Below are positions 403 through 26,607 of a DNA stretch of 64,000 bases, piece after piece. Location of the stretch: IMG/VR virus record IMGVR_UViG_3300043411_001076; one strand, written 5' to 3'. Both the position numbers and the translations under genes were made by a program. Source of the stretch: a virus (Duplodnaviria > Heunggongvirae > Uroviricota > Caudoviricetes). The first letter of the stretch is position 1. Each line of letters opens with the position of its first letter. The notes beneath the pieces were generated by a model. The model made no database searches, was not told the origin of the DNA, and saw only the letters and a program-made list of their open reading frames with translations.

Positions 403-1665
403 ATGACCTCAGTAAAGACAGTTGAACTTGGTGTATTTTCGAAAGATGAAACTATCAAAGATGATAAGATTACTACTCGTAGTGGATGGGGTGACGGACT
501 AGTCACTTGTTACATGGATAAGTCAGAGACAAGAAAGGCTCTTATTACAGACTCTGAATATAAATTGGATTCAAATATCCACTTTGAATCAGAAAGTAAA
601 ACAGATTTCCTCCATAGAAATCTTTTTGATTACTTAGCCCTATGCTATTCTAATCATTATAATGCTATTTTAACTCCTGACATGGTTTGGTTTTCTATTA
701 TGTCTGAATTGGCTGGTGAAGTCAATAGACAACCAGAGACTTATCGAAAATATTTCACAGATTCTAAAGAAAAGAAAACACTTCTAGTTTCTGTAGATCC
801 ATCTCAACCTGGGTTTTTGAATTTTTCTGATTTTAAATCTGCTCTAAAAGAAGCAGTACCTGTAGACACTAATCTGTTCATGCCATCGTTTTCAACATCT
901 GATGCATTATCTAATATGGCTATTCAAGCCGTATTTATGGATGCGGTTTCTCCGTTTTATAACTATATGATGTTTATGTGTGGTATTCCAAAAATTGAAA
1001 TTCATGGGTCTACAGAAGATTGGAATACACTAAAAAATAGTTTTACTGGTATTGTAGAACTAATGAATAACTCTTTCCCTGCTTATGCTAAAAATTGGTC
1101 AGCAAACGTTTATAAAGTTATTGATCAGGTAATCAACACCCTAAATGAACATACACAAGAATTTGATTGGAAAACTATTTTCTATAGTAAAAGTTGTGGA
1201 TCTGGTTCTCAACAAAACGTTTATGGTTGGATCTTTAATCTAGTCATGAATCATGAAGGAAAAGGAAATTCAGAAGGTAAGATGCTCCATAACTACCCGA
1301 CACAAATTGCTAAAGTATCTTATACTATCGTAAATGATCCCAATAATTATACGTTTAAGATTGGACTAACGAAATCAAGTCTAAACGAAAATAATTTCCT
1401 TATCCCTGAATTTGGCTATGTTGTTAACAAAGAGGTTGAAGTTAAAGAACAACCTAGACAACAGAATACAAATAAAGAAGTAGTTATAAAATCTGAATTA
1501 ATTACAACATCCAGACAGAAACTAGATGTTACATGGGAACCGAGAACTGAGATTTTTATATTATCTGGTGATGACGATAAAAGTAAACATCTCGGTCTAA
1601 GGGTAGAAGAAAAGATAGGTGTAGCCTGGACAACTAAAAAATATACTTTTTTACCAGAAGATTAA
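403..1665 (+). CDS. hypothetical protein (420 aa)
   Basis: Long ORF, ATG preceded by AGAAGGGA; followed by GC hairpin terminator; no motif recognised. Confidence 0.6.
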   Translation: MTSVKTVELGVFSKDETIKDDKITTRSGWGDGLVTCYMDKSETRKALITDSEYKLDSNIHFESESKTDFLHRNLFDYLALCYSNHYNAILTPDMVWFSIMSELAGEVNRQPETYRKYFTDSKEKKTLLVSVDPSQPGFLNFSDFKSALKEAVPVDTNLFMPSFSTSDALSNMAIQAVFMDAVSPFYNYMMFMCGIPKIEIHGSTEDWNTLKNSFTGIVELMNNSFPAYAKNWSANVYKVIDQVINTLNEHTQEFDWKTIFYSKSCGSGSQQNVYGWIFNLVMNHEGKGNSEGKMLHNYPTQIAKVSYTIVNDPNNYTFKIGLTKSSLNENNFLIPEFGYVVNKEVEVKEQPRQQNTNKEVVIKSELITTSRQKLDVTWEPRTEIFILSGDDDKSKHLGLRVEEKIGVAWTTKKYTFLPED

Positions 1666-1722: not shown

Positions 1723-3054
1723 ATGGCTAAGAGAATCAAACCAAAAAACAATAAGACAGTAGAGAAATCTTCTGTGACTCCTTTAACTAATAATCAGGAA
1801 ACAGAAAAACTAGAATCTACTTCAGAATTAAATGTATCTTCGGAAAATCAAAATCCTGAAGTACAACAAACTGATAATGTAGTTTCAGAACCTACAGTTG
1901 ATGGAGCTTTACTTGATGAACAACCAGTTGTTCCAGAACCTACAGAAACGTTGGTTATAGAAGTAAGTTCATTGCTTCTCAATAACGATGTGAAAGTTCA
2001 AGACTCAGTAAAGACTAAAGTAATTCTTCCTTTATCATCAGATGATAAGTTTGAATCATCTGTCACCGTTTCACAGTCAAAAAGTAAACATGTTAAGGGT
2101 CTTTTAGATCATTGGGTTGACGCAGAATCTAAAGGACTTATGTATCGTTCTTTATTAGGCATTGCTCTAGGTGATGCTTTCGGTATGTTATTTGGTGAAT
2201 TTCCAAAAGATCCAAGTATCATTAGAAACATTGGATCAAAGGTTATTCCTCCAGAGAAGAATGCTCCTTCTTACTTGTGGAGATGGAGTGATGACACAGT
2301 TGCAGCAACTGCTATTGTAAAAACATTAGAGGAATTTAACGGTATCGATCAAGAAGAACTGAGTGATAACTTAGTATCTGGATATAATGCCTATTCAGAT
2401 AGAGGTTTTGGTGGTGGATTCAAGAAATTAATGGTAGGAATTAATGCTGGAGGATCTTGGAAGAAACTATCAAAAGACTTATTTGATGGGATTGGATCTT
2501 TTGGAAATGGATCGGCTATGAGAGTTGCACCTGTAGGTGCTTTTTTACACGATACAAGTATCCAAGCTGTTATACAGGAGGCAACAGAATCAGCAGAAGT
2601 GTCACATGCCCATCCAGAAGGAATTGCAGGGGCTGTTGCAGTAGCATTAGCTTCCTATTTTCTAAGTCAAGAAAATAATGAACCTCGTTCATTATTAAAT
2701 AAAATTCTGGAACATATGCCAGAATCAGAGACTAAAAATCAAATTAAGAAAATAAGTCACGTTGATATTCAAGAGCATCCATCATCTGTTGCTGAACTTT
2801 ATGGAACAGGAATGGCTCCAAAAAGTACGAAAATCAGTACAACATGTCAACATACAGTTCCATTCTGTCTTTGGATGGTACAGAGAAGTCTACTTTTTAA
2901 TAAGTCTTTTTCTACGACCATGTGGGAAGTTGCAGAATGTCTTGGTGATATTGATACGACTTGTGCTATTGTCGGTGGCATCCTTGCCTGCAATAAAAAT
3001 ATTAAGCTTCCTCAAGAATGGATTTCTAAACTAGAACCTATTCCTGTATTTTGA
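1723..3054 (+). CDS. ADP-ribosylglycohydrolase (DraG/ARH) family protein with low-complexity N-terminal extension
   Basis: Motifs LLGIALGDAFG, WSDDTVAATA, GNGSAMRVAPVGAF typical of ARH family; N-terminal ~140 aa S/T/E/Q-rich. Confidence 0.7.
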   Translation: MAKRIKPKNNKTVEKSSVTPLTNNQETEKLESTSELNVSSENQNPEVQQTDNVVSEPTVDGALLDEQPVVPEPTETLVIEVSSLLLNNDVKVQDSVKTKVILPLSSDDKFESSVTVSQSKSKHVKGLLDHWVDAESKGLMYRSLLGIALGDAFGMLFGEFPKDPSIIRNIGSKVIPPEKNAPSYLWRWSDDTVAATAIVKTLEEFNGIDQEELSDNLVSGYNAYSDRGFGGGFKKLMVGINAGGSWKKLSKDLFDGIGSFGNGSAMRVAPVGAFLHDTSIQAVIQEATESAEVSHAHPEGIAGAVAVALASYFLSQENNEPRSLLNKILEHMPESETKNQIKKISHVDIQEHPSSVAELYGTGMAPKSTKISTTCQHTVPFCLWMVQRSLLFNKSFSTTMWEVAECLGDIDTTCAIVGGILACNKNIKLPQEWISKLEPIPVF

Positions 3055-5438: not shown

Positions 5439-5580
5439 TTTCTATGTTACGTTTTTGTAGGTTCTGCGATATAATAGGCATCAGAAAGGTAGTAGCTAAT
5501 AGCTACTGCGGCGACTTGGATCGTTTTAAGGTTCTATCTATATGTGTAGTTGAACCTTAAAGCATTTTTTGGGAAAGAAA

Positions 5581-7194
5581 ATGACTAGACTAGCAAACGT
5601 TGTAAATCTTGTATCCGAAACTCCTTCGATGAAGGCTGATACCGTAAATAAGGAAGGATACGCCGCTTTCAAAAAGCAATTTGAAGAACAGTATATTCAG
5701 ACATTGTTAACTAATACTTTTGGAAAGGCATTTTACGCTACGTCTAATGAATTGATTAAAGAGTCTATTAATCTACACAACGAGATGGTAGAGAAAGATC
5801 CTGCATTTATGGCAAATGCCCTTGTATATGCCAGAAACAAGGGATACATGCGTTCTCAACCTATCTATGGTCTTGCAACATTGGCACGAAAATCAGTAAC
5901 TGATGCCAAAGCAGGACTAAAAGATTCGGCTGCTAGAGATAACTTCAAAAGAGTTTTCTCTCTAGTCGTACTAACTCCAAAGGACTTGTTAGACTTTGTT
6001 ACAGTGACAAGGTCTATGAGAGGATGGGGAAGTCTTGTTAGAAAGCAAGTACAGAAATGGCTAAGTGATAAGATGAATACCTATTGGGCCATTAAATATG
6101 GTTCCATGAAATCTGGAACCTATTCTTTGAGAGATGTTTATCGTATTTCTCACCCAAAGGTTTTGGAAGGTGCAAGGAAAGGAATCGTAAACTACATTGT
6201 TCGCGGTGAATTAGGTATGGAACACCCTGATCTGGAGCAGATTAATTGCTTTGAACAGTTAAAAACTGCAACTGATGCAGATTCCAAAGTTGAATTAATT
6301 AGACGCGGGCGCTTACCTCACGAAGTTGCGACTACCTTTGCAGGTAAAGATAAGAAGGTATGGGAATCCATTGTCCCTCAAATGCCTATCTTTGCCTTAC
6401 TACGGAATTTAGCAACCATTGAAAGAAATGATGTTGTGAAGGAAAGTAAGAATAAGATTGAGAGCACCTTCTCAAATGAACAGCAAGTACGAAAAAGTAA
6501 GATTCTTCCGTTCCAATTTTTATCTGCGATGGATAAGGTAACTACTCCTTTCATTAAAGATGCTCTTAGGGATGGTCTTGAGTTGTCTTTCAGTAATCTC
6601 CCAGAAATCACTGGTAACACAGTCGTATTCTTAGATATCTCTGGATCTATGGACGAATTAGATACCTCTGGATCTATGACCAATGGAAGTAAGATAAAGA
6701 CAGCCTCTATTTTTGCTGTTGCTCTTATGAAGAAGATTGAAGAAGGAAAACTATATCTTTTTGATACGGCTATTGAAGAAAGGGTAATCTCAAAAAGAGA
6801 TAGTCTTATGACTCAGGCAGAAAGAATCAAAACCAGAGGTGGTACTGAGACATCTATTACTATCGATACTATTCTTAGGAAGAAAGAAAAATATGATAAT
6901 ATTATTATGCTCACAGATGAACAGCAAAATTCTGGGCGTCCATTCTGTGATCGTTTAGCTGCATATCAAAGAGTTTACCCAGACGTAAAAACGTTTATTA
7001 TAGATATTTCTCCATACACTCAATCAAGGTCTTTACCTATTGATATGAAGAATGTATATTATATCTTTGGATGGTCCCCTAAAGTTTTGGAATTCATTTC
7101 TATGACTACTAAAGGATGGTCAACTATGACAGAAATGATCCGTGATCCGAAAAATTATTCTCTGCTTTCTGATAAAACAGAAGATGATGAATAA
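5581..7194 (+). CDS. Ro60-like protein: TROVE domain + von Willebrand A (vWA) domain
   Basis: N-terminal NKEGYAAFK...TNTFGKAFYATS...ANALVYARNKGYMRSQPIYGLATLA (TROVE-like); C-terminal MIDAS motif VVFLDISGSMD; ORF-track start 5569 is TTG, ATG 5581 has GGGAAAG upstream. Confidence 0.65.
   Translation: MTRLANVVNLVSETPSMKADTVNKEGYAAFKKQFEEQYIQTLLTNTFGKAFYATSNELIKESINLHNEMVEKDPAFMANALVYARNKGYMRSQPIYGLATLARKSVTDAKAGLKDSAARDNFKRVFSLVVLTPKDLLDFVTVTRSMRGWGSLVRKQVQKWLSDKMNTYWAIKYGSMKSGTYSLRDVYRISHPKVLEGARKGIVNYIVRGELGMEHPDLEQINCFEQLKTATDADSKVELIRRGRLPHEVATTFAGKDKKVWESIVPQMPIFALLRNLATIERNDVVKESKNKIESTFSNEQQVRKSKILPFQFLSAMDKVTTPFIKDALRDGLELSFSNLPEITGNTVVFLDISGSMDELDTSGSMTNGSKIKTASIFAVALMKKIEEGKLYLFDTAIEERVISKRDSLMTQAERIKTRGGTETSITIDTILRKKEKYDNIIMLTDEQQNSGRPFCDRLAAYQRVYPDVKTFIIDISPYTQSRSLPIDMKNVYYIFGWSPKVLEFISMTTKGWSTMTEMIRDPKNYSLLSDKTEDDE
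6638..6680 (+). repeat. in-frame tandem duplication (CTCTGGATCTATG x2, 27 nt apart) within vWA MIDAS motif
   Basis: Encodes SGSMDELDTSGSMTNG; direct DNA repeat visible. Confidence 0.5.
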
Positions 7195-7225
7195 TTAACC
7201 GCAAAAAACTGAAAACAACTCGATA

Positions 7226-7264
7226 AAAGCTCTATTATTTTTATAATAGGGCTTTTATCTTTTT
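7226..7264 (+). terminator. intrinsic terminator
   Basis: AGCTCTATTAT-tttt-ATAATAGGGCT hairpin followed by TTTATCTTTTT. Confidence 0.6.
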
Positions 7265-7274
7265 AGAGGGTATT

Positions 7275-7910
7275 ATGAAACATATAGATGATATTAAGGC
7301 AAGATCAGGGGTAACGTTAGAGCAAGTAAAAGATGAATTAAAATTTCCAACTATTTATGATCCAGAAAAATTTATATCAAAGACTCCCTATCCTAATAGT
7401 CATCCTTCTTACTTGAAAAATATAAAAATAGTTAAACATATCTCTGAAAACTTAAAGCCAGTAGATCACGAAGAGATGATGGCTTATGATAGGTCATTTC
7501 GACATGAAATTAGTAATAAATTAGATAAATTAAAGATTCCATATCAATGGGTAGACGGATTATTCGAAGAATTAGAATATCTTATAGTACTTGAAAAGTA
7601 CAGGCATAACAAGCCAAGACCTTTTATTTTAGGACCACACATAGGAGTAGAAATAACACCGATACATTACAGATATGCACAATCACCTTCATATCCTTCG
7701 GGCCACGCCATGCAAGCATATTTGGTGTCAGAGGTTATAAAATTACTATTAAATATTGACGAACTGGACTCTGTAGCAGGTAGAGTCTGTTTAATTCGTA
7801 TGCAAGCGGGTGTACACTTTCCATGTGATCTTATAGAAGGGATGAAATTAGCTAAAAATCTGGCTAAATATCTAGTAGAGACATATGGAAAGAATATTTT
7901 TAATTTGTAA
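7275..7910 (+). CDS. PAP2-superfamily phosphatase (soluble, no signal peptide or TM)
   Basis: All three PAP2 signature motifs with correct spacing: K-x6-RP (KYRHNKPRP), PSGH (YPSGHA), R-x5-H-x3-D (RMQAGVHFPCD). Confidence 0.65.
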   Translation: MKHIDDIKARSGVTLEQVKDELKFPTIYDPEKFISKTPYPNSHPSYLKNIKIVKHISENLKPVDHEEMMAYDRSFRHEISNKLDKLKIPYQWVDGLFEELEYLIVLEKYRHNKPRPFILGPHIGVEITPIHYRYAQSPSYPSGHAMQAYLVSEVIKLLLNIDELDSVAGRVCLIRMQAGVHFPCDLIEGMKLAKNLAKYLVETYGKNIFNL

Positions 7911-7927
7911 AACAGAAACGGGGAAGC

Positions 7928-8548
7928 ATGGACTGTTACAGTGATCCGCCTCTAATAGTAATGAGTACTATTGAATGTATTCAGCATCGACCTGGGATGT
8001 ATATAGATAAAACAGATGTCCTTCCAGAACATATCCCATACCAGATTTTATGGTATCTGTTAGATTGGGTGTCTTACTTAAATCCGACAACAGTATCTAT
8101 AGGAATTCATTCTTCTGGTGAGCTAGAGATAGTAGCCTCACCTATCAATCGTCAATATTTAAATCTTGAATCAGAATTAGAAAATGGTCATGGAGTTGAA
8201 GATAGGTATAGTTTATTTTCAAACTATAAATATATGATAGATCCTGTATCTAAAAAATTAGATATGGGGACTCTAGTTATTGTAAACGCCTTATCTGAAG
8301 AATTAGAATTAGATTATAACTGTGACAATAAAAATTTTAATTTTCGATACCAAAATGGTAATTTAGTAAGCAGATCTGAGGAAGATAGATCGGATAATCA
8401 TGTCAGAATTAGATTCAGACCTTCTTCAGAGATATTCAAAAAGCTTTGCGATATACCTTTCAATATATCGGACCTATCTTATATCTTAGGCTATGTAAGT
8501 AAATTAACATTACCCTTTAAAATTCATTTACTATCTACAAAGGAATAA
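7928..8548 (+). CDS. GyrB/ParE N-terminal (GHKL) -like fragment, catalytic residues not conserved
   Basis: IQHRPGMYIDKTD...ILWYLLDWVSYL aligns with type IIA topoisomerase RPGMYIG...LHHLVxEVVDNxxDE but N/E positions are W/Y; only 206 aa. Confidence 0.4.
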   Translation: MDCYSDPPLIVMSTIECIQHRPGMYIDKTDVLPEHIPYQILWYLLDWVSYLNPTTVSIGIHSSGELEIVASPINRQYLNLESELENGHGVEDRYSLFSNYKYMIDPVSKKLDMGTLVIVNALSEELELDYNCDNKNFNFRYQNGNLVSRSEEDRSDNHVRIRFRPSSEIFKKLCDIPFNISDLSYILGYVSKLTLPFKIHLLSTKE

Positions 8549-8549
8549 A

Positions 8550-8732
8550 ATGTTAGACTCAAAAAAGAACCCCGCATTAGTACTTGCCGTAAAAGAAGCA
8601 GAGAAAACATTCTTTATTCCTAAGTTTGTTGAAAATGATATAACGATTAATAATCCTGCAATTCTAAACGCTTTGAAAACAGTAAAATTTTATATGCCAA
8701 ATGTTCCCTATACGAAAAAGGAAGAAAAATGA
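8550..8732 (+). CDS. hypothetical small protein
   Basis: 60-aa ORF, SD AAAGGAATAAA upstream, stop overlaps next start. Confidence 0.4.
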   Translation: MLDSKKNPALVLAVKEAEKTFFIPKFVENDITINNPAILNALKTVKFYMPNVPYTKKEEK

Positions 8733-9088
8733 GCACGATTTTTGAAAAGATCATAGCAAGACAGATCCCTGCAAATATTGTCTATGAAGACGAAAACGTG
8801 TTAGCATTTGAGAGTAATGATCCTATTGCACCTGTTCATATAATTATTATTCCTAAGTTATCCACCGTTAGTAGAGACATCAATGACCTTTTTTATAAAT
8901 ATGTGCATGAGGAAGCCAAAACATATTTAGGACTTCTATTTGAAGTTGCCTATTCGTTAGCACTTTTGAAAGGAATAGCTAAGACAGGTTATCGTACTGT
9001 TATTAATAATGGACCAGATTCAGGACAGCAAGTTCCCTACATACATCTACATCTCATTGGTGGTAAACAATTAGGGAGCATCGGTTAA
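8729..9088 (+). CDS. HIT-family (HINT-like) nucleotide hydrolase
   Basis: Histidine triad YIHLHLIGG near C-terminus; N-terminal IFEKIIARQIPANIVYEDENVLAFESNDPIAPVHIIIIPK typical of HINT. Confidence 0.8.
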   Translation: MSTIFEKIIARQIPANIVYEDENVLAFESNDPIAPVHIIIIPKLSTVSRDINDLFYKYVHEEAKTYLGLLFEVAYSLALLKGIAKTGYRTVINNGPDSGQQVPYIHLHLIGGKQLGSIG

Positions 9089-9090
9089 AT

Positions 9091-9414
9091 ATGTCAAATG
9101 AAGGAAATTATAAGCAGGCTATTTTAGATGAAATAATGAATATAAGAAATAGACCTGAGATGTTTGCTAGGGATTTAAACGAAGCATGTCATATTTTGAT
9201 AACCCTATTCGATATTTTAAACAGAAATAGAGAGTTCGAAGAACTAGAGGTAAACGTATTTAAAATCTATCTTAATAAATTGGAAGTTACGTTTTCAAAT
9301 TCAAAAATAACTAATATAGAGCCACTTGTTCTTTTTTCAGATAAAAGAGCAGGGGAATTTATTAAAGACTTTGTAGATACTATCGTATCAGCATTGAGAT
9401 TAAACCATAATTGA
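9091..9414 (+). CDS. small GyrB N-terminal-like protein (degenerate)
   Basis: IRNRPEMFARDLNEACHILITLFDILNRN resembles topo IIA RPGMYIG..LHHLV.EivDN segment; 107 aa. Confidence 0.35.
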   Translation: MSNEGNYKQAILDEIMNIRNRPEMFARDLNEACHILITLFDILNRNREFEELEVNVFKIYLNKLEVTFSNSKITNIEPLVLFSDKRAGEFIKDFVDTIVSALRLNHN

Positions 9415-9425
9415 GTAGGGAAAAC

Positions 9426-9683
9426 ATGACTAAGAAAATTGATTTGGAAGATTTAGTTAGATTAAGAAATTCAGAAGTAAATGCAAATAAAGAAAGGATA
9501 AGAACAGGTGTTATTAAAGTATCTGAAGAAAATTACGTACCGAAGGAAGTCAAAGTAAGAGCTTGGATCTCACATTTTCTAGCAACAGTTGAATTAAAGG
9601 ATGATTTTGAAGGTGATTTTGAAGACTTAACAGATCCAAAAATTATATACATTGAACCCCATAGGAAATTAAATCTTTTATGA
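9426..9683 (+). CDS. hypothetical small protein
   Basis: ORF-track start 9411 is TTG; ATG 9426 preceded by GTAGGGAAAAC. Confidence 0.4.
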   Translation: MTKKIDLEDLVRLRNSEVNANKERIRTGVIKVSEENYVPKEVKVRAWISHFLATVELKDDFEGDFEDLTDPKIIYIEPHRKLNLL

Positions 9684-9886
9684 TGAGCTATATGATAGCC
9701 GTAAAGAAAGCAGAAGACTTAGAAAGTCTATGTTCTATTTTAAAAGAAAATAGTATATCTTATAGAAAATCTTTTGATACGTCAGTACGTGTCAATTACA
9801 GTAGTTCATTAGAATTAGGTATTTTACTATCCAAAACAAAAGTAGGATTTGAAATATTTCCTAGTTCAAAACTGGAATTCTTTTAA
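9680..9886 (+). CDS. hypothetical small protein
   Basis: ATGA overlap with upstream gene. Confidence 0.4.
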   Translation: MMSYMIAVKKAEDLESLCSILKENSISYRKSFDTSVRVNYSSSLELGILLSKTKVGFEIFPSSKLEFF

Positions 9887-9901
9887 TAAAGGAAAAAGGC
9901 T

Positions 9902-10282
9902 ATGCTACGAAAAATCTTAAGAGAAGCTTTGCTAAGTGAAAATCCAACAAGTAAACAGTTGGAAACACTTACAAGTAACTTGAAAATGTTTCCAGAAATG
10001 GCAGGTGTTAAAAACACTGAATTTGTAGACGAATTGAGATCTTATCTCATAAAGAATGAAAACGCAAGTATATGGGAAGCAATGCTTTTTTCTTTTCATA
10101 AGCGAATGTTTTTAGCAGAAGGTGGTGACGAAGAAAGCACTGAAAAAGATTGGGAAGAGACGAAATCAGACCTTCTAGGATTCGTAGAGCACACGATGGA
10201 TTTAAGAGCAGAACAAGTATTAGGAAAGAAAATCGAAGAAGAAATGGAAAAGCGGAAGGAAAATCCAACAACAATCCATTAA
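9902..10282 (+). CDS. hypothetical protein, acidic C-terminus
   Basis: SD AAAGGAAAAAGG upstream; followed by GGGGACA/TGTCCCC hairpin. Confidence 0.45.
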   Translation: MLRKILREALLSENPTSKQLETLTSNLKMFPEMAGVKNTEFVDELRSYLIKNENASIWEAMLFSFHKRMFLAEGGDEESTEKDWEETKSDLLGFVEHTMDLRAEQVLGKKIEEEMEKRKENPTTIH

Positions 10283-10291
10283 CCATATGTA

Positions 10292-10316
10292 GGGGACACT
10301 GTCCCCTAATTTATTT
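10292..10316 (+). terminator. hairpin terminator (weak T-run)
   Basis: GGGGACAC-TGTCCCC perfect hairpin then TAATTTATTT. Confidence 0.45.
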
Positions 10317-10414
10317 GGAGTTAACTCCGTAGTCTATTTATAGTGTGTATTACTATACAATACAATTACATGTATCATACTTCCACGACTAACTCACCTA
10401 GAAGAGTAGCATTT

Positions 10415-10891
10415 ATGTCAGAAAAACAGTCTAAGATCAAAAAATTCTTCCATTCAGCCTTTCAAGTTGTGTGGACACCTATAGCCCTACCTATTTTTTT
10501 ATTTACACAGTATATTATGATGTTAGAGAAAAATAGGGCTGATAAATTTAATGCCGAGGAAGATAAAAAGTATAGAACGGAACTAACCAATAAACTTATA
10601 GAGAGATTGAAAAAAGATTTAGAATTATCAGGTCCAAATTGGAAAATACATAGTCTCTCATACGACAATAACAACTATAATCTAGAAAATGATTATTACT
10701 ATTTTACAAGGAATCCAAATTTTACAACTTCGGTTGTCTATACTCTTACAGATAAAATTTCAGGTAAATATAGGCTATTTGAAAATAAACTAAAACATAA
10801 TAAAACCACCAACGAATTTGATATTGTTCTGACAGAAATTCCTTTAGATAAGGAAGAACAGGCATTTGATGATTTGGAAAGTTACTGGTAA
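10415..10891 (+). CDS. membrane protein (one predicted TM helix)
   Basis: ORF-track start 10343 is GTG; ATG 10415 (MSEKQSK); hydrophobic stretch VWTPIALPIFLFTQYIMML. Confidence 0.4.
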   Translation: MSEKQSKIKKFFHSAFQVVWTPIALPIFLFTQYIMMLEKNRADKFNAEEDKKYRTELTNKLIERLKKDLELSGPNWKIHSLSYDNNNYNLENDYYYFTRNPNFTTSVVYTLTDKISGKYRLFENKLKHNKTTNEFDIVLTEIPLDKEEQAFDDLESYW

Positions 10892-10908
10892 TTTATATGG
10901 TTTATGAA

Positions 10909-11187
10909 ATGAATAGAAAAATATACACATCGCCTTATTCGGTTGATATTATATATGACTATGCAACCGCAAAAAATAGTAGGGTACAGAGTTATAGGCA
11001 TAAAAAGAACTACGAAAAGTCTATAGTAACCTATGGAAAATTGGAAGAGAAAAATTATAATACTGCCTATATATTTCATATAGATAATAATAACGGCAAT
11101 TGGGATTCTATGTTTATTGAAAATAATTCAATCTATTCTAATTTTGAAGAAATAAGATTTTTCATTCGACAAACAAGAAAATTATAA
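10909..11187 (+). CDS. small Y-rich protein, tandem paralog family member 1 (MNRK[VI]YT ... TRKL)
   Basis: Shares N-terminal M[ND]RK[VI]YT and C-terminal [FL]TRKLNN with next three ORFs; second ATG chosen to match paralogs. Confidence 0.45.
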   Translation: MNRKIYTSPYSVDIIYDYATAKNSRVQSYRHKKNYEKSIVTYGKLEEKNYNTAYIFHIDNNNGNWDSMFIENNSIYSNFEEIRFFIRQTRKL

Positions 11188-11196
11188 AGGATCTTT

Positions 11197-11484
11197 ATGG
11201 ATAGGAAAGTATATACGACTAAAGAGGAAGTGGACTTTGCTTATAATTACGGATTAGTGGAATCGATTTATGGTGTAAAAGATGGAAGACCTTTAAAATC
11301 TATCTTAACATACGAAAATAGAAAATCACGCGAATACTTAGGCTATCCGCATAATTTGGATAACGAGATAAATAATTTATCTTCGACATCTCCCAGGTCG
11401 TTACCCCCTATTTTTAGATCCAACTTAACTAAAGAACGCTATCATTTTAGACTTACTAGAAAATTAAATAATAGGATAGGTTAA
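11197..11484 (+). CDS. small protein, tandem paralog family member 2
   Basis: MDRKVYTT...FRLTRKLNN. Confidence 0.45.
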   Translation: MDRKVYTTKEEVDFAYNYGLVESIYGVKDGRPLKSILTYENRKSREYLGYPHNLDNEINNLSSTSPRSLPPIFRSNLTKERYHFRLTRKLNNRIG

Positions 11485-11792
11485 TGGATGAGAAAGAAGA
11501 AATACGCAGAGTAGTCTATACATCTAGAATACAGGTGGAAGGTCCATTTAAATATGACGATATAAAATTATATGATAAATTAAAACGATATGACGAAAGC
11601 CGATTCTCTAATCTAACTTATAGTAAAAAAGAACAGTTACATATAGGAAATCCAGGGAATTTAAATGATGGTGGTAACAAGTACTCTACTTCTCCTGACT
11701 ATTATTTAGATATGTCTATTGAAGACGGACATTTTAGCGATGTCAGGTTGTTTAAAAGATTAAAGAGAAGATTACCAACTAACAAGGTATAA
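11484..11792 (+). CDS. small protein, divergent tandem paralog family member 3
   Basis: RRVVYTS...RLFKRLKRRL; weaker similarity. Confidence 0.4.
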   Translation: MDEKEEIRRVVYTSRIQVEGPFKYDDIKLYDKLKRYDESRFSNLTYSKKEQLHIGNPGNLNDGGNKYSTSPDYYLDMSIEDGHFSDVRLFKRLKRRLPTNKV

Positions 11793-18648: not shown

Positions 18649-19704
18649 ATGGACTTTGAAAGGCTATTAACACTTGCCTTAGAGGGGGATAAGGCAGTAT
18701 TAAACGATATAAAAGCAGAAGCAAAAAGAAGATGTTCCCCTTATATGCACTTGGTATATGGTCTTCTAAAAGAAATAGGAGACGAGAATATAGACTACAA
18801 TTACAAATCGTCGTTTTCTAATATACTAGAGAAAAATGTTGAAACTCTAAAGGGTTTAAGCAATGAAGAGTATGAAGTACTGAGGTTAATAGCAAGTAAA
18901 ATACCGTATTACAAGAGAAGTAGTCCGTTAAAGAAGGACAATATGTATAACGATTCTATTTTTAGACTGTGTACATATTTTAAAATAGACTCCGTAGTCT
19001 GTATGCATAACGTTCAAAGACTAAACTCTGTACATGGTAAATACTTAGAGAAAAACCTAGCGTATAAGATTTCTGAAACGGTTTCAGATAATAAAGAAAT
19101 CTATAAATTTATTAGAAGTGTTAAGGATAACACACGATTCCTTGATATCCCTACAAATTTAGCAAATTTAATTTACTATCCAAATGTATACAAGAACAAA
19201 CGTGTTAGTTGGGACGTACTGTACAATTTAAAATACTTAAAATTATCTGGGCTGAATTTTGGAAATGGTAAAATAAATCCTTTAATAGAAGCTGCACCAC
19301 ATTTAGAGTTTTTGGATGTTAATGCATTTGAGTTAAAACAAGATTCTCTACCAGAAACTATGAATCTAAAAGTCCTAAAAATATCAAATAGTGTAGGACT
19401 TAATAATATTAATCTGCCTTATACTGAGCATATGCAGATAGATAAGTTAATATTATCTGATCCGATCTCAGCGGCAGATTTTAATAGTTTTAAAAAACTA
19501 CTTTATATACTATTTAATAGTAAATATAGCATACATAAGGTACACTACGGTATTTCAAATTATTTCTATGGAAAGAAGGGGAAAATAAATGTAAAATGGT
19601 ATACGATAGATACATCTACTGATAGTATCGATGATATTTATCGTGACTTAGAGAGGATCAGTAAAAAATTAATGTTAAAAGAGAGCAACGCAGATAAATC
19701 TTAG
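18649..19704 (+). CDS. MDxERL paralog family protein 4
   Basis: MDFERLLTLALEGD...KRRCSPYMH...YYKRS. Confidence 0.6.
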   Translation: MDFERLLTLALEGDKAVLNDIKAEAKRRCSPYMHLVYGLLKEIGDENIDYNYKSSFSNILEKNVETLKGLSNEEYEVLRLIASKIPYYKRSSPLKKDNMYNDSIFRLCTYFKIDSVVCMHNVQRLNSVHGKYLEKNLAYKISETVSDNKEIYKFIRSVKDNTRFLDIPTNLANLIYYPNVYKNKRVSWDVLYNLKYLKLSGLNFGNGKINPLIEAAPHLEFLDVNAFELKQDSLPETMNLKVLKISNSVGLNNINLPYTEHMQIDKLILSDPISAADFNSFKKLLYILFNSKYSIHKVHYGISNYFYGKKGKINVKWYTIDTSTDSIDDIYRDLERISKKLMLKESNADKS

Positions 19705-20516
19705 GTTATCTTCGATAGGTTAGGGAAACAGTATTTCAAGGCTGCTCTATCAGCTATCTTCAAAGTATCACCTAGTTTTAAAGTATGTAATTTCGGGGAT
19801 TTTAATAAGTATAGATTCTCTATATCCCTAATAGGATTCTTACTAAGAATTAGAACCCCTAGATTTGGGAATCGACATTTTTCCAGTCCTTCTAAAGATG
19901 TCACTGCATTATTCGTTAAATTTAGCAACTGTAATTTTTTACAGTTCAATTCATGTAAATTATAAATACTATTAATTAAATTGTTACCAAGATCTAAGTA
20001 TTTAAGATTTGGCAAATTCCATGTACGTATTAGGTCTATATCAGTTATCTTATTGTAATCTAATGAAAGATGACTTAAACTTGGAAAACTTAGATTCTCA
20101 CTGCCTTCTAAAGAGCTTATTTGATTATTGACACATATTAGTTTATCTAAAGATATTGCGTTTAAATAATTGATTCCTGCTAAAGAAGAAATACCTGTAT
20201 CAGTTATCCATAGTTCTTTAAGATTATTAGCATTTACTCCTGTAAGCCACTGGATATCGTTTAAAGCTTTATTGTTAAATTCCCATTTCTCTCCATTCAA
20301 ATCCAGATTAATATTATAATTGGTTTTAAGATATTCTAAAAGAAAGTCTGGATTTGCTCCTCTTCTACTTAATAGAGAATAGTAGGTTGAAAGGAGTGAT
20401 GGGTCTGTTGGATTTAGTCGAATTAAATGTTCCAATCTCTCCAATACAGAATCGCTAGAAGCTCTAATATGCTTTGCTAGTTTCTTAATAGACTTGTGGA
20501 TAGTCATAAAATACAA
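19701..20516 (-). CDS. leucine-rich repeat (internalin/SDS22-type LRR) protein, IKKLA paralog 1
   Basis: ~22-residue repeats LxxLxxLxLxxNxIxxIxxL (e.g. LNLTNNAVTSLEGLEKCRFPNLGVLILSKNPIRDIENL); N-terminal IKKLAKHIR shared with 20525 and 22282 genes. Confidence 0.7.
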   Translation of the reverse strand: MYFMTIHKSIKKLAKHIRASSDSVLERLEHLIRLNPTDPSLLSTYYSLLSRRGANPDFLLEYLKTNYNINLDLNGEKWEFNNKALNDIQWLTGVNANNLKELWITDTGISSLAGINYLNAISLDKLICVNNQISSLEGSENLSFPSLSHLSLDYNKITDIDLIRTWNLPNLKYLDLGNNLINSIYNLHELNCKKLQLLNLTNNAVTSLEGLEKCRFPNLGVLILSKNPIRDIENLYLLKSPKLHTLKLGDTLKIADRAALKYCFPNLSKIT

Positions 20517-22281: not shown

Positions 22282-23088
22282 TCAAGTAATTATAGTCAAA
22301 TTTTTATGTTTTTTTGATTTATATATTTGATTTGCTAGATTAGGATCTAAACCTAATAAATAAACATCTAGACCTTTTGTCCTTCCCTCTGCTAGTTTGT
22401 TCAACTGATTTACGATATATGGCGCATTGGACAGAGGGTTTCCATTTAAGAACAGATTTTTTAATTTAGGAAAATTTAAATCCTCAATTCCATCTAGATC
22501 GTAGATTTTATTTAATACAAGATGTATGTTTTTCAAATTAGGTGCTGTTATATGAGATAATTCAGATATGTGACTTATATTGTTATGGTTTAACAACAGA
22601 TTTCTTAATACAGGAGCATCCATTTGCGGGATTTTCGATATTTTATTCTTTTCTAAATTTATTCTTATTACCTTAGATAAGTCTAATGTGGACAGATCAT
22701 CAATATCTGTAAGCTTATTATTAGAAAAATCAATCTCTATCAAGTTAGGAGTAATAGCATCTCCTAATCCTTCTATTGATGTGAGATTAGCGTAGTCATA
22801 AGCAAGGACTTCTAAATTAGGAAAAGTAAGCCCTGCCATCCATTGTAAATCATCAACCGCACCGCCTAAGTTAAAAGCATCCAAGTGTAAATAGAAACCA
22901 TACGTCTCTGATACCCAATTTATGTATATTTCTGGATCTTCCGTTAGTCTATTACATAATTTAAGATAGGCTTTTCTAATAGAAACATCTCTAGGATCAA
23001 GTTGTAATCGTCTTCCTAGAATTTCTAATTCTGCATTGGTTGATGACAAGCGAATATGAGAAGCGATTCTTTTTATTGCTTTAAACAT
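22282..23088 (-). CDS. leucine-rich repeat protein, IKKLA paralog 3
   Basis: LRR units LxxLxLxxNKIxxIxxL (e.g. LKNLFLNGNPLSNAPY, IRINLEKNKISKIPQM); N-terminal FKAIKRIASHIR. Confidence 0.7.
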   Translation of the reverse strand: MFKAIKRIASHIRLSSTNAELEILGRRLQLDPRDVSIRKAYLKLCNRLTEDPEIYINWVSETYGFYLHLDAFNLGGAVDDLQWMAGLTFPNLEVLAYDYANLTSIEGLGDAITPNLIEIDFSNNKLTDIDDLSTLDLSKVIRINLEKNKISKIPQMDAPVLRNLLLNHNNISHISELSHITAPNLKNIHLVLNKIYDLDGIEDLNFPKLKNLFLNGNPLSNAPYIVNQLNKLAEGRTKGLDVYLLGLDPNLANQIYKSKKHKNLTIIT

Positions 23089-23163: not shown

Positions 23164-26100
23164 TTACTGTTCGCATCCACCAGCAGAGCAGGCAGCTTCA
23201 CCTTGAAATGAAGTTCCATCTTCTAATTCAAGCATAAATTCATAGTTCACAGGCTTGAAATTAGAAACAATATTATTCCATAGGAATTCATCTTTTTCAG
23301 TAACTACTTCTTCTCTTGGAGCAAAGGCATAATCTTTATCTCCTGAGTAGGGAAGCATCGAGATACCAGAAAACTGGAACCTTCTATCCCATAAGAAATG
23401 TTTTACATCTTCCCATTCATCAGGTTTAACAACGACGGTATTAGACACATTATTCTTAAGTCCTGGATTATCAGTATCTCTGGCAGTTCCGTAAGCAATC
23501 CAATTAGTCTGTGTCAAGAATACCCTCTCCAAAAATTCTAAAGCCGTCATATCATTTCTTGTTACTGCTCCTTCAGGAGCTTCTACACAGAACGTAATAA
23601 CATCTTCTGTGTCATTAACCTTTTCACACATATGGGGATTTATACTCTTGAAAAATTGATAAACTGCTTCACCTGGAGACATACGAACACGTCTAAAATA
23701 TCTCTTAGCATGATGCGGATGTATTCCACTACCCACACAACCTAGAGCTAAGGACGCTGTACCTGAAGGTTTTACTGCGGTAAGTCTAGCAGCAGAATTA
23801 ATACCTAGTAGGGCAGAAAACTTTTCATTTACTTCTTTGCATAATAAGGCTGCCCTTCTCTGAAGATCGGCATTAAAAGCAATAGCAGGGTTATCTACCA
23901 TTCCCGTCATAGAAACGCCCAACAAGGCATCTCTACGAGCAAGTAACTCTGTCACTGGTCCTAAATATGGAAAATCTGTATATCCAGCTTGGCAAGTACC
24001 AATGATTGTAGCTGCCGTCACCGATTCTAAAAATTCTTCTTCTGTCTTACATGCTGCAACATTTACTTCTGATAAATTACAAAACGACCAACCACATAAG
24101 ATATCTCCAATATTGACATTAATATTTCTTTCTTTTAAGAAGATTTGGGCTTTAGAATCAACAACATAGAAAGGATTGAATTGGACCTCGCTACAATTTC
24201 CACTAACAATACCATTAGCGATTACGCTATTCGTTTCGGGCTGAGTGAGACAGTACACATCTGTTCTCTCATCCATTTTCGTAATAGAAACTATTTTTGT
24301 AATGTGTCTTTCGGGCTTATTACAATCTCTACCTCGTTCGTCTAAAACCTGTGTAAGTCTTCTTCCTTTTGCCCCAGGTAATTTAATTGTATTTTCAAAA
24401 GTTATACAATTAGGACGGCTAATAATAAGTTCGTGCATAGGTTGGCATAGATAATCTTTATGGCCACCCTTTCCATCAGGTAACTTACGATAAGCTTCTT
24501 CAGTTCTCCTATACACCTTAGAAACAATTCCAAAACCCATCAAAAGATTTTGAATATCTTCCAATAAATCTCGATTAACTTGTGAAATTCTTAATGAAAC
24601 CGTTTTCTTTTTATCCTTTCCAGAACACAAGACAGTTCCATCAGATACAATCATTCCTGCAATATAGCCAGCCACCATTTCTTTGGTTCCCTTCCAAACA
24701 ACTTCTGGAACCATTTTTTTCAGATCACTGGTAGACTGTCCCTGTAAAATATTCTCAACTACTTTATAGAAATTTGCACCCCCTATTCTCTTTTTTGTTC
24801 CATGATCTTGACTATGCCACCCCAAATCATTTTTATTATTTAATTTGAATAGTTGTCTCTGATCATTAACAATCTTATGTAGTAAATCAGATAATTCGAA
24901 GTCCGACTCCCAAATGTCTATAAACGCACTTTTACCGCTGAAACATCCATCTCCTGTAAGCATTCCGAGAATAAATCCTTGATCCCAGCTTCCCTCCCTC
25001 CCAAATCTTACAGAACCAGAGTTTAACAAAAGAGTATCCCCAACAGATAACTCATGCGTTTCCTTTCTTCCATTAAAAGTAGGGAATTTATGGTTTTCTG
25101 TTACTTTTAATCTCTGCCCATGTTCTGTCTGTATCTCAAATACTTCTGCGCTCTTTTTGGTAAGGAACGCAGAAGTTGCCTTTCTTAGTTTATTTCCCTT
25201 TAATTCTGGAAATATCAGATCCCCTTTACCAACTCTGGTATCTGTATTAACACATAAGGGTATCCCATTTTTCTCCATATCTCCGATTTTCATCCATCCT
25301 TTACTTGTAGAGATCCTAGTATCAGGATGGAAACACGGATTTGTGCCGTAATCTAGACTATCTACAAATAAGAACCCAGGCTCTCCATATTCTTTTGTAG
25401 ATCTAAATAGTCTGCTATACTGTTCAAAAGTTGCTTGACTTCTTAATAGTACTGCCGAATTATTAGCGCGAGATCTCCAAGGATGTGTTTTCCACCATTC
25501 TCCAGTTTTAGCATTAATCATTTCCTCATCATCAATAGAAAATAAGGAAATCGAAGCACTGCGACGGACACCCCCAGCTAATACAGCTTCGCTAGCTAAA
25601 CATACGATGTCATGGCATTCAATAGGTCTTAAATGCCTGCCTTGAACTGAATCTAGTACTTTCCTAATACGACGAATTGCCAATTTAAGAGGGATATGTC
25701 CTGGTGCTCTACCGCCTGATGTAGACAGGTAAGATCCTTTACCTCTTATTTGACTATAAGAAAATTCGGTATAGTAGTCTCCTTCGACATAAGACATAAT
25801 AAGTGCATGCAATGCATCTGCCCATCCTTGGATCGTATCTTCTACGATATGATGTCTTACTTTGTCTTTATTAATATGCTTTAAAGGAGCTAATTGCGCG
25901 ACATGGTGCTTCTGTACTGAAAACCCTGTACCGCATCCACAGAGAAGTAAGAAAAAGGCTTCTTTAAAGAAAGAAAAACGATTGCATGGGCTAAAGCTAC
26001 AATTATAAATTCGTTCATTGATCGCTTTTACGCCCTTACCACCAAACTGCATAGATCGCATACTTGGAAGGGAAACACGATCTCTAACTTTATTAAAAGC

Positions 26101-26607
26101 CCATCTGATATCATTTTCAATTTGAGGAAACTTTTCAATGTGCATATTCTGTACACGGTCTATACTTTCCCCATGTACTTCGCGTCTAAATACTTCCTTC
26201 TTATACTGAGAATATTTAGCAACGTGAATGAAATCTGCTATTACTTCTTTAGGTAATCCTGGAAGCCTTTGATTTCTAAGTTCACTTCTCTTATTTCTAT
26301 AAAGAATATAAGACTTGGCTGCTTGGGGTAGATTAGCGCCAACTAAGATGTTTTCGACAATATCTTGAATAAGTTCTACATCAACGAAATCTTTATTTTC
26401 GGTGTCATTTGTCTTAGACAGTAAGATATACTGTGAAACTGCCTTACAAACATTATTTGTTAAATCTTCTAAATTATAAGTTTTAACATCATCACAAGAT
26501 AGTAAGCATTTATAAATAGCGTCTTTTATTTTTCCCTTTTCAAACGAGACAAGAGAACCATTTCGCTTTTTCACTAAAAAATTGGTATCGTAAATCGACA
26601 TGGACAA
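23164..26607 (-). CDS. ribonucleotide reductase catalytic subunit (ATP-cone; class II-like NPC[S]E active-site motif) interrupted by an intein
   Basis: N-terminal ATP-cone-like region; extein junction GTNP|CSEVQF matches RNR active-site NPCGE; C-terminal redox pair C-x4-C (AACSAGGCEQ); 380-aa Hint+LAGLIDADG insertion. Confidence 0.85.
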   Translation of the reverse strand: MSMSIYDTNFLVKKRNGSLVSFEKGKIKDAIYKCLLSCDDVKTYNLEDLTNNVCKAVSQYILLSKTNDTENKDFVDVELIQDIVENILVGANLPQAAKSYILYRNKRSELRNQRLPGLPKEVIADFIHVAKYSQYKKEVFRREVHGESIDRVQNMHIEKFPQIENDIRWAFNKVRDRVSLPSMRSMQFGGKGVKAINERIYNCSFSPCNRFSFFKEAFFLLLCGCGTGFSVQKHHVAQLAPLKHINKDKVRHHIVEDTIQGWADALHALIMSYVEGDYYTEFSYSQIRGKGSYLSTSGGRAPGHIPLKLAIRRIRKVLDSVQGRHLRPIECHDIVCLASEAVLAGGVRRSASISLFSIDDEEMINAKTGEWWKTHPWRSRANNSAVLLRSQATFEQYSRLFRSTKEYGEPGFLFVDSLDYGTNPCFHPDTRISTSKGWMKIGDMEKNGIPLCVNTDTRVGKGDLIFPELKGNKLRKATSAFLTKKSAEVFEIQTEHGQRLKVTENHKFPTFNGRKETHELSVGDTLLLNSGSVRFGREGSWDQGFILGMLTGDGCFSGKSAFIDIWESDFELSDLLHKIVNDQRQLFKLNNKNDLGWHSQDHGTKKRIGGANFYKVVENILQGQSTSDLKKMVPEVVWKGTKEMVAGYIAGMIVSDGTVLCSGKDKKKTVSLRISQVNRDLLEDIQNLLMGFGIVSKVYRRTEEAYRKLPDGKGGHKDYLCQPMHELIISRPNCITFENTIKLPGAKGRRLTQVLDERGRDCNKPERHITKIVSITKMDERTDVYCLTQPETNSVIANGIVSGNCSEVQFNPFYVVDSKAQIFLKERNINVNIGDILCGWSFCNLSEVNVAACKTEEEFLESVTAATIIGTCQAGYTDFPYLGPVTELLARRDALLGVSMTGMVDNPAIAFNADLQRRAALLCKEVNEKFSALLGINSAARLTAVKPSGTASLALGCVGSGIHPHHAKRYFRRVRMSPGEAVYQFFKSINPHMCEKVNDTEDVITFCVEAPEGAVTRNDMTALEFLERVFLTQTNWIAYGTARDTDNPGLKNNVSNTVVVKPDEWEDVKHFLWDRRFQFSGISMLPYSGDKDYAFAPREEVVTEKDEFLWNNIVSNFKPVNYEFMLELEDGTSFQGEAACSAGGCEQ
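24196..25335 (-). mobile_element. intein (Hint domain + LAGLIDADG homing endonuclease) inserted at RNR catalytic Cys
   Basis: Starts CFHPDTRISTSKGW (block A), LAGLIDADG motifs ILGMLTGDGCF and IAGMIVSDGTV, ends VYCLTQPETNSVIANGIVSGN followed by +1 Cys (blocks F/G); aa 425-804 of host protein. Confidence 0.75.

Follow-up and report, generated by a model that had tools for sequence, protein, structure and literature searches.

A stand-alone GyrB/ParE-type GHKL domain with a destroyed ATP site in an uncultured large-phage clade

Gyrase and topoisomerase IV are major antibacterial targets, and to our knowledge their ATP-operated N-gate has been drugged solely via the ATP pocket. In GyrB43 dimer structures, the N-terminal strap of GyrB/ParE crosses to the partner protomer as this gate closes, and in real GyrB the strap of the partner docks onto the ATP-closed lid. 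D73 of the DxGxG box is a contact of the adenine. Within the same site, the Glu E42 is catalytic, the Asn N46 binds Mg and the Gly-rich loop has a phosphate role (PMC4159350).

Two phage proteins, Igy (LUZ24 gp9) and Gip (CGP3 Cg1978), are proposed or demonstrated modulators of host gyrase during infection, Igy as a proposed DNA mimic on GyrB and Gip by binding GyrA (PMC10886550). A subunit mimic is not among the classes of phage gyrase modulator in this review, and the terms 'GHKL' and 'dominant' are absent from its text. Two further groups of proteins are GHKL domains outside full type IIA enzymes. The SPO11 partners (TOPOVIBL/MTOPVIB and yeast Rec104) contain B-subunit-derived GHKL domains which lack the ATP-binding motifs and are kept for non-catalytic protein binding. 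Viruses also encode GHKL folds that are not full topoisomerases, including stand-alone GyrB-like ATPases (Nile crocodilepox virus Q070G5, 392 aa) and the rIIA-type GHKL proteins of phages.

We analysed a 64-kb stretch of phage DNA (the window), in which ORF 7928 encodes a 206-aa protein, g206, that can be compared with each of these. Like the SPO11 partners, g206 is a GHKL domain of B-subunit type without ATP-binding motifs; however, those proteins are eukaryotic and meiotic, derive from a type IIB enzyme (topo VI), work with a catalytic A-type partner and have no sequence kinship to g206. The viral GyrB-like and rIIA-type proteins match the g206 model in structure, but at 281-1,400 aa (at least 266 aa for the fragments listed) they are far longer, and no sequence kinship to g206 was detected. 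Igy and Gip would share the biological role that we propose for g206, but both are peptides of ~50 aa and neither is a homologue of a topoisomerase domain.

The gene block around g206

The initial annotation had drawn attention to two ORFs, 7928 and 9091, as GyrB/ParE-like proteins. Both were found on the + strand at these positions, with both of the peptides quoted for them. The features of the locus are as follows.

7222..7259, + strand: terminator-like hairpin from a consensus scan (17-pair stem followed by a T-run), upstream of the PAP2-to-g126 block
7275..7910, + strand: PAP2-family phosphatase (Pfam PAP2, E 7.7e-7), the first gene of the block, directly 5' of g206
7928..8548, + strand: g206 (ORF 7928), 206 aa, a stand-alone catalytically dead GHKL (Bergerat-fold) domain that ends at the GHKL/transducer boundary
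7928..8002, + strand: g206 codons 1-25, the N-terminal strap MDCYSDPPLIVM and the ECIQHRPGMY motif
8040..8071, + strand: g206 N-box helix YQILWYLLDW, from HMMER and MAFFT alignments
8550..8732, + strand: g60, a conserved 60-aa ORF with g206 upstream and HIT downstream
8729..9088, + strand: HIT-family (Hint-like) nucleotide hydrolase (Pfam HIT, E 6.3e-19)
9091..9414, + strand: g107 (ORF 9091), 107 aa, lineage-specific and mostly helical by prediction
10290..10308, + strand: terminator-like hairpin from a consensus scan (8 pairs, 5 of them GC), after g126, closing the block

The genes of the block are co-directional, tightly packed and bracketed by the two terminator-like hairpins. The neighbourhood in the window includes genes for an ADP-ribosylglycohydrolase and a Ro60/TROVE protein in addition to PAP2 and HIT, all of an accessory or host-interaction type. 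Neither Rfam nor tRNA scans of the window gave a match. Several of these genes have counterparts in a distant second phage lineage (L003/L004). The PAP2 protein is 72% identical to its counterpart in L003, and g60, which has a dN/dS of 0.13, shows 67% identity over 46 aa to a 59-aa ORF there. The HIT domain is kept both in L003 and in L001, a 92%-identical relative. Its histidine-triad motif is YIHLHLIGG, in which Tyr takes the place of the first His; the motif of the L003 orthologue is HLHIHLIGG. HIT matches in phages were uninformative.

The two ORFs had been presented as a pair flanking the HIT gene. HIT does lie between them, together with the 60-aa ORF, but this arrangement is not a conserved cassette: in L003/L004 three genes, including an aminoacyl-tRNA synthetase gene, separate the dead GHKL gene from HIT, and a homologue of ORF 9091 is absent. 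We therefore rejected HIT as a functional partner of g206, since their adjacency is not conserved in L003/L004.

Homology, ATP site and selection of g206

g206 resembles the B subunits of type IIA topoisomerases far more closely than expected by chance. A phmmer search of the PDB matched 56 ParE/GyrB chains and no other proteins, with a best E of 2.8e-8 and alignments over residues 3-184, and a profile of the g206 family reached E 1.7e-9. An all-protein HMMER search with g206 recovered only GyrB/ParE-like proteins and one family member, and identity to the bacterial ParE/GyrB N-terminal domain is about 24-30% across the whole domain; Pfam HATPase_c gave no match at all to g206. The likeness had been described as a short N-terminal segment, which understates its extent, as a complete GHKL domain of ~24 kDa is aligned. 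Moreover, the motif quoted as the ATP-lid region is in fact the N-terminal strap, helix 1 and N-box. The predicted structure of g206 shares the Bergerat fold of the ParE/GyrB GHKL domain, in an AF2 model that is biased toward the GyrB fold because genuine GyrBs were in its input alignment. With bacterial ParE/GyrB (S. aureus ParE 4URN/4URL, E. coli GyrB 4DUH/1EI1), g206 has in common this predicted fold, the Tyr strap, RPGMY, the VNALS helix and the C-terminal domain boundary. Unlike these enzymes it is phage-encoded and stand-alone, without transducer (Q335/K337), TOPRIM or tail, and the next ORFs encode the 60-aa protein and then HIT. The nearest relatives of g206 are cellular ParE/GyrB and not phage topo II, which argues against the suggested origin from a phage topo II gene.

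The alignments confirmed that the catalytic residues are absent from ORF 7928. In the N-box, GyrB E42, D45, N46 and E50 are replaced by Gln39, Trp42, Tyr43 and Trp47, respectively. A six-residue gap spans EDNGRG, so that the G1 box (DxGxG) is deleted. The G2 box is also lost, with the Gly-rich GGLHGVG reading KKLDMGT and the LHAGGKF lid reading LENGHGV, and the lid carries an insertion of about 9 residues. This lid is degenerate, poorly conserved across lineages and modelled with pLDDT <50.

The second lineage (L003/L004) encodes an orthologue, P0006, of 211 aa and 27% identity to g206, at the syntenic position in the order TROVE-PAP2-(79 aa)-GHKL. At this level of identity both the GHKL domain boundary and the protein length are preserved. 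P0006 has Glu at both the E42 and N46 positions, and no Asp or Gly motif at the position of the G1 box. Compared with L001, g206 has a dN/dS of 0.09. The ATP site is dead, the gene is under purifying selection and it has been retained in two lineages; therefore g206 is very probably a pseudo-enzyme, a functional gene for a stand-alone GyrB/ParE GHKL domain with all of its ATP-site motifs destroyed.

The g206 family belongs to an uncultured large-phage clade and is kept by strong purifying selection. It is a very small family: 1.8 billion representative proteins contain members from two lineages only. The nearest DNA polymerase lies in a 485-kb uncultured phage. A DNA search of positions 5500-11500 against GenBank phages gave no match. 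Searches of phages by tblastn returned just three weak ParE-like matches to g206, in probable bacterial contaminants, and none to PAP2. Peptide patterns derived from the alignment found no family members in IMG/VR, JGI metagenome contigs or GTDB genomes, and a word-indexed protein search returned self-matches and GyrB fragments and nothing else.

Strap conservation and candidate functions of g206

The strap and RPG[ML]Y are by far the best conserved segment of the g206 family: 17 of 25 residues are identical between g206 and P0006, compared with 22% identity elsewhere (binomial P ~1e-6). Codons 1-25 of g206 correspond to the N-terminal arm of GyrB (the Tyr5 region) and RKRPGMYIG. Y4 and R21-P22-G23-M24-Y25 of g206 match GyrB/ParE, and neither genuine GyrB/ParE sequences nor the phage family vary at the Tyr, R-P-G and Y. 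Since the strap with its Tyr and RPG[ML]Y is the part most held by selection, pairing with the ATPase domain of a type IIA topoisomerase is the most likely role. We estimate at roughly one in three (0.3-0.35) the probability that g206 pairs in this way with a genuine B subunit and acts as a dominant-negative mimic. The target would probably be host GyrB or ParE. The resulting dead heterodimer would be incapable of productive N-gate closure or ATP turnover, and host DNA supercoiling or decatenation may in this way be stopped or re-tuned during infection. The finding of no phage topoisomerase subunit among the ~45 window ORFs scanned and a neighbourhood of accessory or host-interaction genes are in keeping with such a role. 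The lid of g206, onto which a partner strap would dock, is degenerate, poorly conserved and of low modelled confidence, so a symmetric clamp is unlikely.

If pairing with a host B subunit is correct, a mimic of half the N-gate dimer would represent a new inhibitory principle, a subunit mimic and not a DNA mimic, poison or ATP competitor, and would offer a model on which to build strap-based peptide or protein inhibitors. It would also provide a clear case in which a phage has taken part of an essential host gene and made a pseudo-enzyme of it.

The strap and RPGMY are, however, also core-structural and highly conserved in the real enzymes, and their conservation in g206 could stem from folding or homodimerisation instead of heterodimerisation. 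A tentative alternative is that g206 is a dead GHKL domain put to a new use, as a general scaffold or protein-binding module that acts either as a homodimer or together with a phage partner and has no topoisomerase link. There is precedent in the GHKL-fold anti-sigma factors, which bind sigma factors. However, the sequence similarity of g206 is specifically to ParE/GyrB, and the part that has been kept is the type IIA-specific strap and RPGMY, which are missing from the GHKL domains of anti-sigma factors and histidine kinases. As a scaffold, or as an accessory subunit, g206 would add modestly to the catalogue of degenerate GHKL domains.

That accessory subunit would be a non-catalytic component of a phage type II topoisomerase encoded outside the window, which we consider unlikely. 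The genome is probably much larger than the 64 kb of the window, with the nearest DNA polymerase in a 485-kb uncultured phage, and a topo II partner could be encoded elsewhere in it. Degenerate GHKL domains are documented as structural partners of topoisomerase-like enzymes (TOPOVIBL and Rec104 with SPO11), and topo II is encoded by some jumbo phages (PMC7824862). Against this, no phage topoisomerase subunit was found among the ~45 window ORFs scanned with Pfam and/or PHROGs, no topoisomerase gene was found by precomputed Pfam in relatives of 14-16 kb, and cellular ParE/GyrB are closer to g206 than phage topo II is.

There is a slight chance that g206 acts as a decoy for a host toxin or defence system that attacks the ATPase domain of GyrB/ParE, for instance by Fic-type adenylylation of the lid or Cpe1-type cleavage. 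Toxins are known to act on this domain: its LHAGGKF loop is cleaved by Cpe1, and a Fic toxin has been mentioned in the same context (PMC12136450). The Tyr100-Lys101 pair of g206 occupies the position of GyrB Y109-K110, consistent with a lid-directed decoy. However, P0006 does not conserve the lid region, the Tyr-Lys pair included, and it is the strap that is kept instead. A decoy for the Cpe1 protease was rejected, as the cleavage motif is not kept in g206, where the site reads LENGHGV.

The suggestion that both ORFs are functionless, decaying remnants of a broken topoisomerase gene, which would fit the loss of catalytic motifs and their shortness beside full GyrB, is effectively refuted by dN/dS values of 0.09 and 0.13, by ORFs intact in four independent contigs, by the same-length orthologue with its domain boundary held at 27% identity in the second lineage, and by the co-directional, tightly packed genes between two terminator-like hairpins. 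Two further candidate functions were rejected. Truncated GyrB titrates coumarin drug, but g206 lacks the pocket residues N46 and D73, and a coumarin sponge was rejected for this reason. A DNA mimic was likewise rejected, with g206 and g107 just mildly acidic (pI about 5.0-5.2).

ORF 9091 and its likeness to GyrB

The proposal that both proteins are catalytically degraded GyrB/ParE homologues was supported for ORF 7928 but not for ORF 9091, where the match is a borderline one of ~37 residues and the low-confidence model gives no evidence of a GHKL fold. In hhalign, g107 reached a probability of 4.8% over 22 columns. The weak likeness of g107 to GyrB is confined to about 22-37 residues (ILDEIMNIRNRPEMFARDLNEA...), at residues ~9-45, in the strap/helix-1/RPGMY segment.

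We consider the odds about even that the RNRPEMF motif of g107 is a chance or convergent likeness in an unrelated small helical protein. Searching the whole PDB with the g107 sequence or profile brought up no GHKL, Pfam, PHROGs and the PDB gave no matches, and BLASTP of g107 against ORF 7928 returned nothing. The AF2 model of g107 is of low confidence (pLDDT 68.7) and mostly helical with a short beta-hairpin; it has no recognisable GHKL fold, and its structure matches are generic helix bundles only. A counterpart is absent from the distant lineage (L003), in which the 79-aa ORF upstream of P0006 (…AVRDLPGL…) was considered as a second strap-like protein and rejected, as it gave no score with the GyrB-N HMM. 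Against a chance likeness, an HMM built from genuine GyrB/ParE N-termini only ranked g107 second of 413 stop-to-stop segments of the window (E 0.006, 11.4 bits), and none of 20,000 shuffles reached this score. The match also agrees with GyrB in its distance from the N-terminus, and in both a helix, predicted in g107, comes next.

A broader reading would make the g206 family a new class of phage topoisomerase modulator that acts via strap heterodimerisation, with g107 as a miniaturised, strap-only derivative at the same interface; we regard this combination as doubtful. Because the distant lineage does without g107, this protein is not needed for the function of the g206 family. The dN/dS of g107 (0.13) indicates that it is a real gene; it shares a transcription unit with g206 and encodes a distinct small, helical protein that is specific to its lineage.

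A GyrB/ParE-type domain with a degenerate ATP site

The 206-residue protein g206 is by descent a member of the GyrB/ParE GHKL domain family. A phmmer search against all PDB sequences returned 56 chains, every one ParE or GyrB, with the S. aureus ParE 24-kDa domain as best match (4URN, E 2.8e-8), and a profile of the phage family improved this to E 1.7e-9, bearing out the initial annotation of g206 as GyrB/ParE-like. Exhaustive HMMER searching of 1.84 billion representative proteins gave ten matches at E ≤ 1e-3: g206, one family member and GyrB/ParE-like proteins only. Many of the PDB alignments span residue 3-4 to about 180. The match to GyrB begins at the N-terminal Tyr and extends as far as the final β-strand of the 24-kDa domain (PFKIHLLS versus GVSIRLRD). 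As the protein ends at this point, g206 is the whole ATP-binding domain and no mere fragment. It has neither a transducer nor a TOPRIM domain.

In GyrB, N46 binds the Mg ion, a water molecule links E42 to the γ-phosphate, and the γ-phosphate is held by the Gly-rich loop and helix α6 (PMC4159350). We compared these motifs, numbered as in E. coli GyrB; the same motifs are found in the database proteins P0002, P0003, P0007, P0011 and P0012.

ATP-site motifs of GyrB and their counterparts in g206 and its 211-residue orthologue P0006
E42 (catalytic Glu): g206 Gln39; P0006 Glu
D45: g206 Trp42; P0006 Trp
N46 (Mg-binding Asn): g206 Tyr43; P0006 Glu
E50: g206 Trp47; P0006 Trp
EDNGRG segment holding D73: g206 deleted; P0006 without Asp/Gly motif
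LHAGGKF lid: g206 LENGHGV plus ~9-residue insertion; P0006 not conserved
Gly-rich loop GGLHGVG: g206 KKLDMGT; P0006 not conserved

Replacement of the catalytic residues, as first proposed, is thus borne out by E42 to Gln39, N46 to Tyr43, the deleted EDNGRG segment and the lost Gly-rich loop. Pfam HATPase_c did not match g206 at all. From these motifs we predict with high confidence that g206 neither binds nor hydrolyses ATP canonically. With none of its catalytic features intact and the other subunit domains absent, annotation as a topoisomerase would be wrong.

The gene block and its relatives

The genes from PAP2 to position 10282 are co-directional and closely packed between two terminator-like hairpins.

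7222-7259 (+), terminator-like hairpin bounding the block at its start
7275-7910 (+), PAP2 phosphatase, first gene of the block
7928-8548 (+), g206, GyrB/ParE-type GHKL domain
8550-8732 (+), g60, small ORF
8729-9088 (+), HIT hydrolase (Pfam), Hint-like
9091-9414 (+), g107, small protein
last ending at 10282 (+), three further small ORFs in the 3' part
10290-10308 (+), terminator-like hairpin bounding the block at its end

Because stop and start codons touch or overlap at several junctions, this layout makes co-transcription of the block likely.

An identical copy of g206, called from the same ATG, is present on a Logan contig (L002), and a close relative (L001) carries a syntenic copy (92% DNA identity) with a dN/dS of 0.09. 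P0006 (27-30% identity to g206; E 2.9e-14 in the exhaustive HMMER search) is encoded on two contigs of a distant lineage, L003 and L004, in the order ARH – 221 aa – 541 aa – TROVE – PAP2 – 79 aa – [P0006] – 71 aa – 59 aa – class II aaRS – HIT – onwards. PAP2 (72%), g60, HIT and two further window ORFs, g126 and g182, have recognisable orthologues there. With P0006 found at conserved length amid shared neighbours, two lineages whose copies of this protein have 27% identity have both retained the dead GHKL gene, its length unchanged. No further relatives were detected in IMG/VR, JGI metagenome contigs, GTDB genomes or GenBank phages.

The HIT protein is a bona fide Hint-like protein with a dN/dS against L001 of 0.12, comparable to that of g206. 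Its triad motif, YIHLHLIGG, has Tyr for the first His (HLHIHLIGG in the L003 orthologue). In L003 and L004, three genes lie between the dead GHKL gene and HIT, a pair of small ORFs and a class II aminoacyl-tRNA synthetase of 519 aa, and an unrelated 73-aa ORF lies 3' of HIT; the arrangement of two GyrB-like proteins around HIT is therefore peculiar to one lineage and no conserved cassette. The synthetase gene (L003 8309-9868, L004 6778-8337; tRNA-synt_2b and HGTP_anticodon) has no equivalent in the window.

The second flanking protein, g107, is the product of a real gene: compared with its L001 copy, which is 79% identical, it has a dN/dS of 0.13. It matched nothing in Pfam, PHROG or PDB, as sequence or as profile, and BLASTP against g206 gave nothing. 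We ran an HMM built from genuine GyrB/ParE N-termini alone over all 413 stop-to-stop segments of the window: g206 came top (E 7.6e-6), followed by g107 (E 0.006, 11.4 bits), whose match of 37 residues covers the strap end, helix 1, the RP.M[FY] motif and the beginning of the next helix. As none of 20,000 residue shuffles of g107 reached this score, and given its rank, pure chance seems an unlikely source of the motif. By this match the claim that g107 is GyrB-like has weak support; against it are the missing PDB match, an hhalign probability of 4.8% over 22 columns of the GyrB-N alignment, and a mostly helical single-sequence AF2 model (pLDDT 68.7, weak) matching generic helix bundles only. 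At 107 aa it cannot hold a full GHKL domain. L003 and L004 lack a counterpart, and the HMM picks up none of their other ORFs. We rate a remote strap-derived mini-protein and an unrelated helical protein with a convergent motif about evenly.

The 85-aa ORF 3' of g107 (9426-9683, +) showed a dN/dS of 1.8 against L001, from very few substitutions (97% DNA identity); its translation may begin with either the TTG at 9411 or the ATG at 9426.

The conserved strap and a candidate function

Within their first 25 residues g206 and P0006 agree at 17 positions (MD[CY]YSDPP[LV]I.M.S..EC[IV]Q.RPG[ML]Y), against 22% identity outside this segment (binomial P ~1e-6). Conservation extends to five residues of the former N-box helix (Y38, L41, W42, L45 and W47) and to the VNALS helix. 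The Tyr, the R-P-G and the next Tyr are invariant in the dead family and genuine GyrB/ParE alike. This segment corresponds to the N-terminal arm of GyrB; in GyrB43 dimers the arm wraps onto the partner protomer as ATP closes the N-gate. Y5 lies in this arm (PMC4159350). We conclude that the finding is real: in g206 the phage carries a pseudo-GHKL domain of GyrB/ParE type that stands alone and whose dimerisation strap is conserved. The public JGI call (P0001, 183 aa) takes Met24 as its first residue and therefore lacks the strap (7928-7996, +), the best-conserved stretch; in the Logan call the start is the ATG at 7928.

The reading we favour, at a probability of roughly 0.3-0.35, is that g206 is a subunit mimic: by pairing with a genuine type IIA topoisomerase (probably that of the host) at its ATPase domain, it would prevent productive N-gate dimerisation. 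This is suggested by the loss of ATP chemistry while the type IIA-specific pairing element was kept, by the closer relationship of g206 to cellular ParE/GyrB than to phage topo II, by its accessory or host-interaction neighbours, and by the absence of a phage topoisomerase gene among the ORFs scanned in the 64-kb window, which is part of the genome only. The arm-receiving lid of g206, which is degenerate and poorly modelled, counts against it. More broadly, the inhibitor or decoy function first suggested is plausible.

The strap could instead serve homodimerisation or folding. A generic scaffold or protein-binding module is a somewhat weaker candidate than the subunit mimic, and a TOPOVIBL-like accessory subunit of a phage topo II encoded outside the window is unlikely. 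Slightly less probable again is a decoy that would draw off toxins directed against the GyrB ATPase domain, as neither the Cpe1 cleavage motif nor the lid Tyr-Lys pair is conserved. A decaying pseudogene is scarcely credible, and the proposal of a decayed topo II fragment fails likewise, in view of the low dN/dS (0.09) and the retention of P0006, at 27% identity, in a syntenic place in L003 and L004.

The nearest functional precedent is provided by the degenerate GHKL partners of SPO11, although these derive from type IIB enzymes. The phage gyrase inhibitors Igy and Gip are precedents for the proposed role, but are ~50-aa peptides with mechanisms unlike that of a subunit mimic. A 2024 review of protein gyrase inhibitors includes no GHKL-derived or dominant-negative class (PMC10886550), and a comparative jumbo-phage survey mentions only full two-subunit phage topo II and rIIA-type GHKL proteins (PMC7824862). 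BFVD contains viral GHKL proteins longer than g206, among them a 392-aa crocodilepox virus 'GyrB-like ATPase domain protein', and none of its size.

The wider window

The window looks like part of a large phage. It encodes ribonucleotide reductase, a family A DNA polymerase, DnaB-like and other helicases, Ro60/TROVE, ADP-ribosylglycohydrolase and a sigma-70 region 2 protein. Among GenBank phages, the closest DNA polymerase comes from an uncultured phage of 485 kb and shows 35% identity. GC is ~0.30-0.35 throughout, and g206 is no different. A tRNA scan of the 64 kb found none.

The Ro60/TROVE and vWA protein (5569-7194, +) matched Pfam TROVE (E 1.6e-21) and phrog_850 (E 1e-49). No Y-RNA or other Rfam family reached gathering score in the whole 64 kb; a divergent Y-RNA-like partner may be present below detection. 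The ribonucleotide reductase (23164-26607, -; 1,147 aa) has a PHROG match split into two stretches, which suggests a large insertion, possibly an intein. Other features were observed as follows.

403-1665 (+), DUF4419 protein, upstream of the block
1723-3054 (+), ADP-ribosylglycohydrolase (ARH), upstream of the block and syntenic in L003
10897-11792 (+), three tandem ~95-102-aa ORFs with alike N-termini (..RK.YT..) that look like paralogues; L002 has a fourth copy
19701-20516 (-) and 22282-23088 (-), two leucine-rich-repeat proteins (Pfam LRR_4/LRR_8), unusual phage cargo
32471-34729 (-), 752-aa AAA+/protease-like ATPase
40691-42235 (+), protein with the ivWA domain of the 'FtsH ternary system' and the N-terminal helical region of that system
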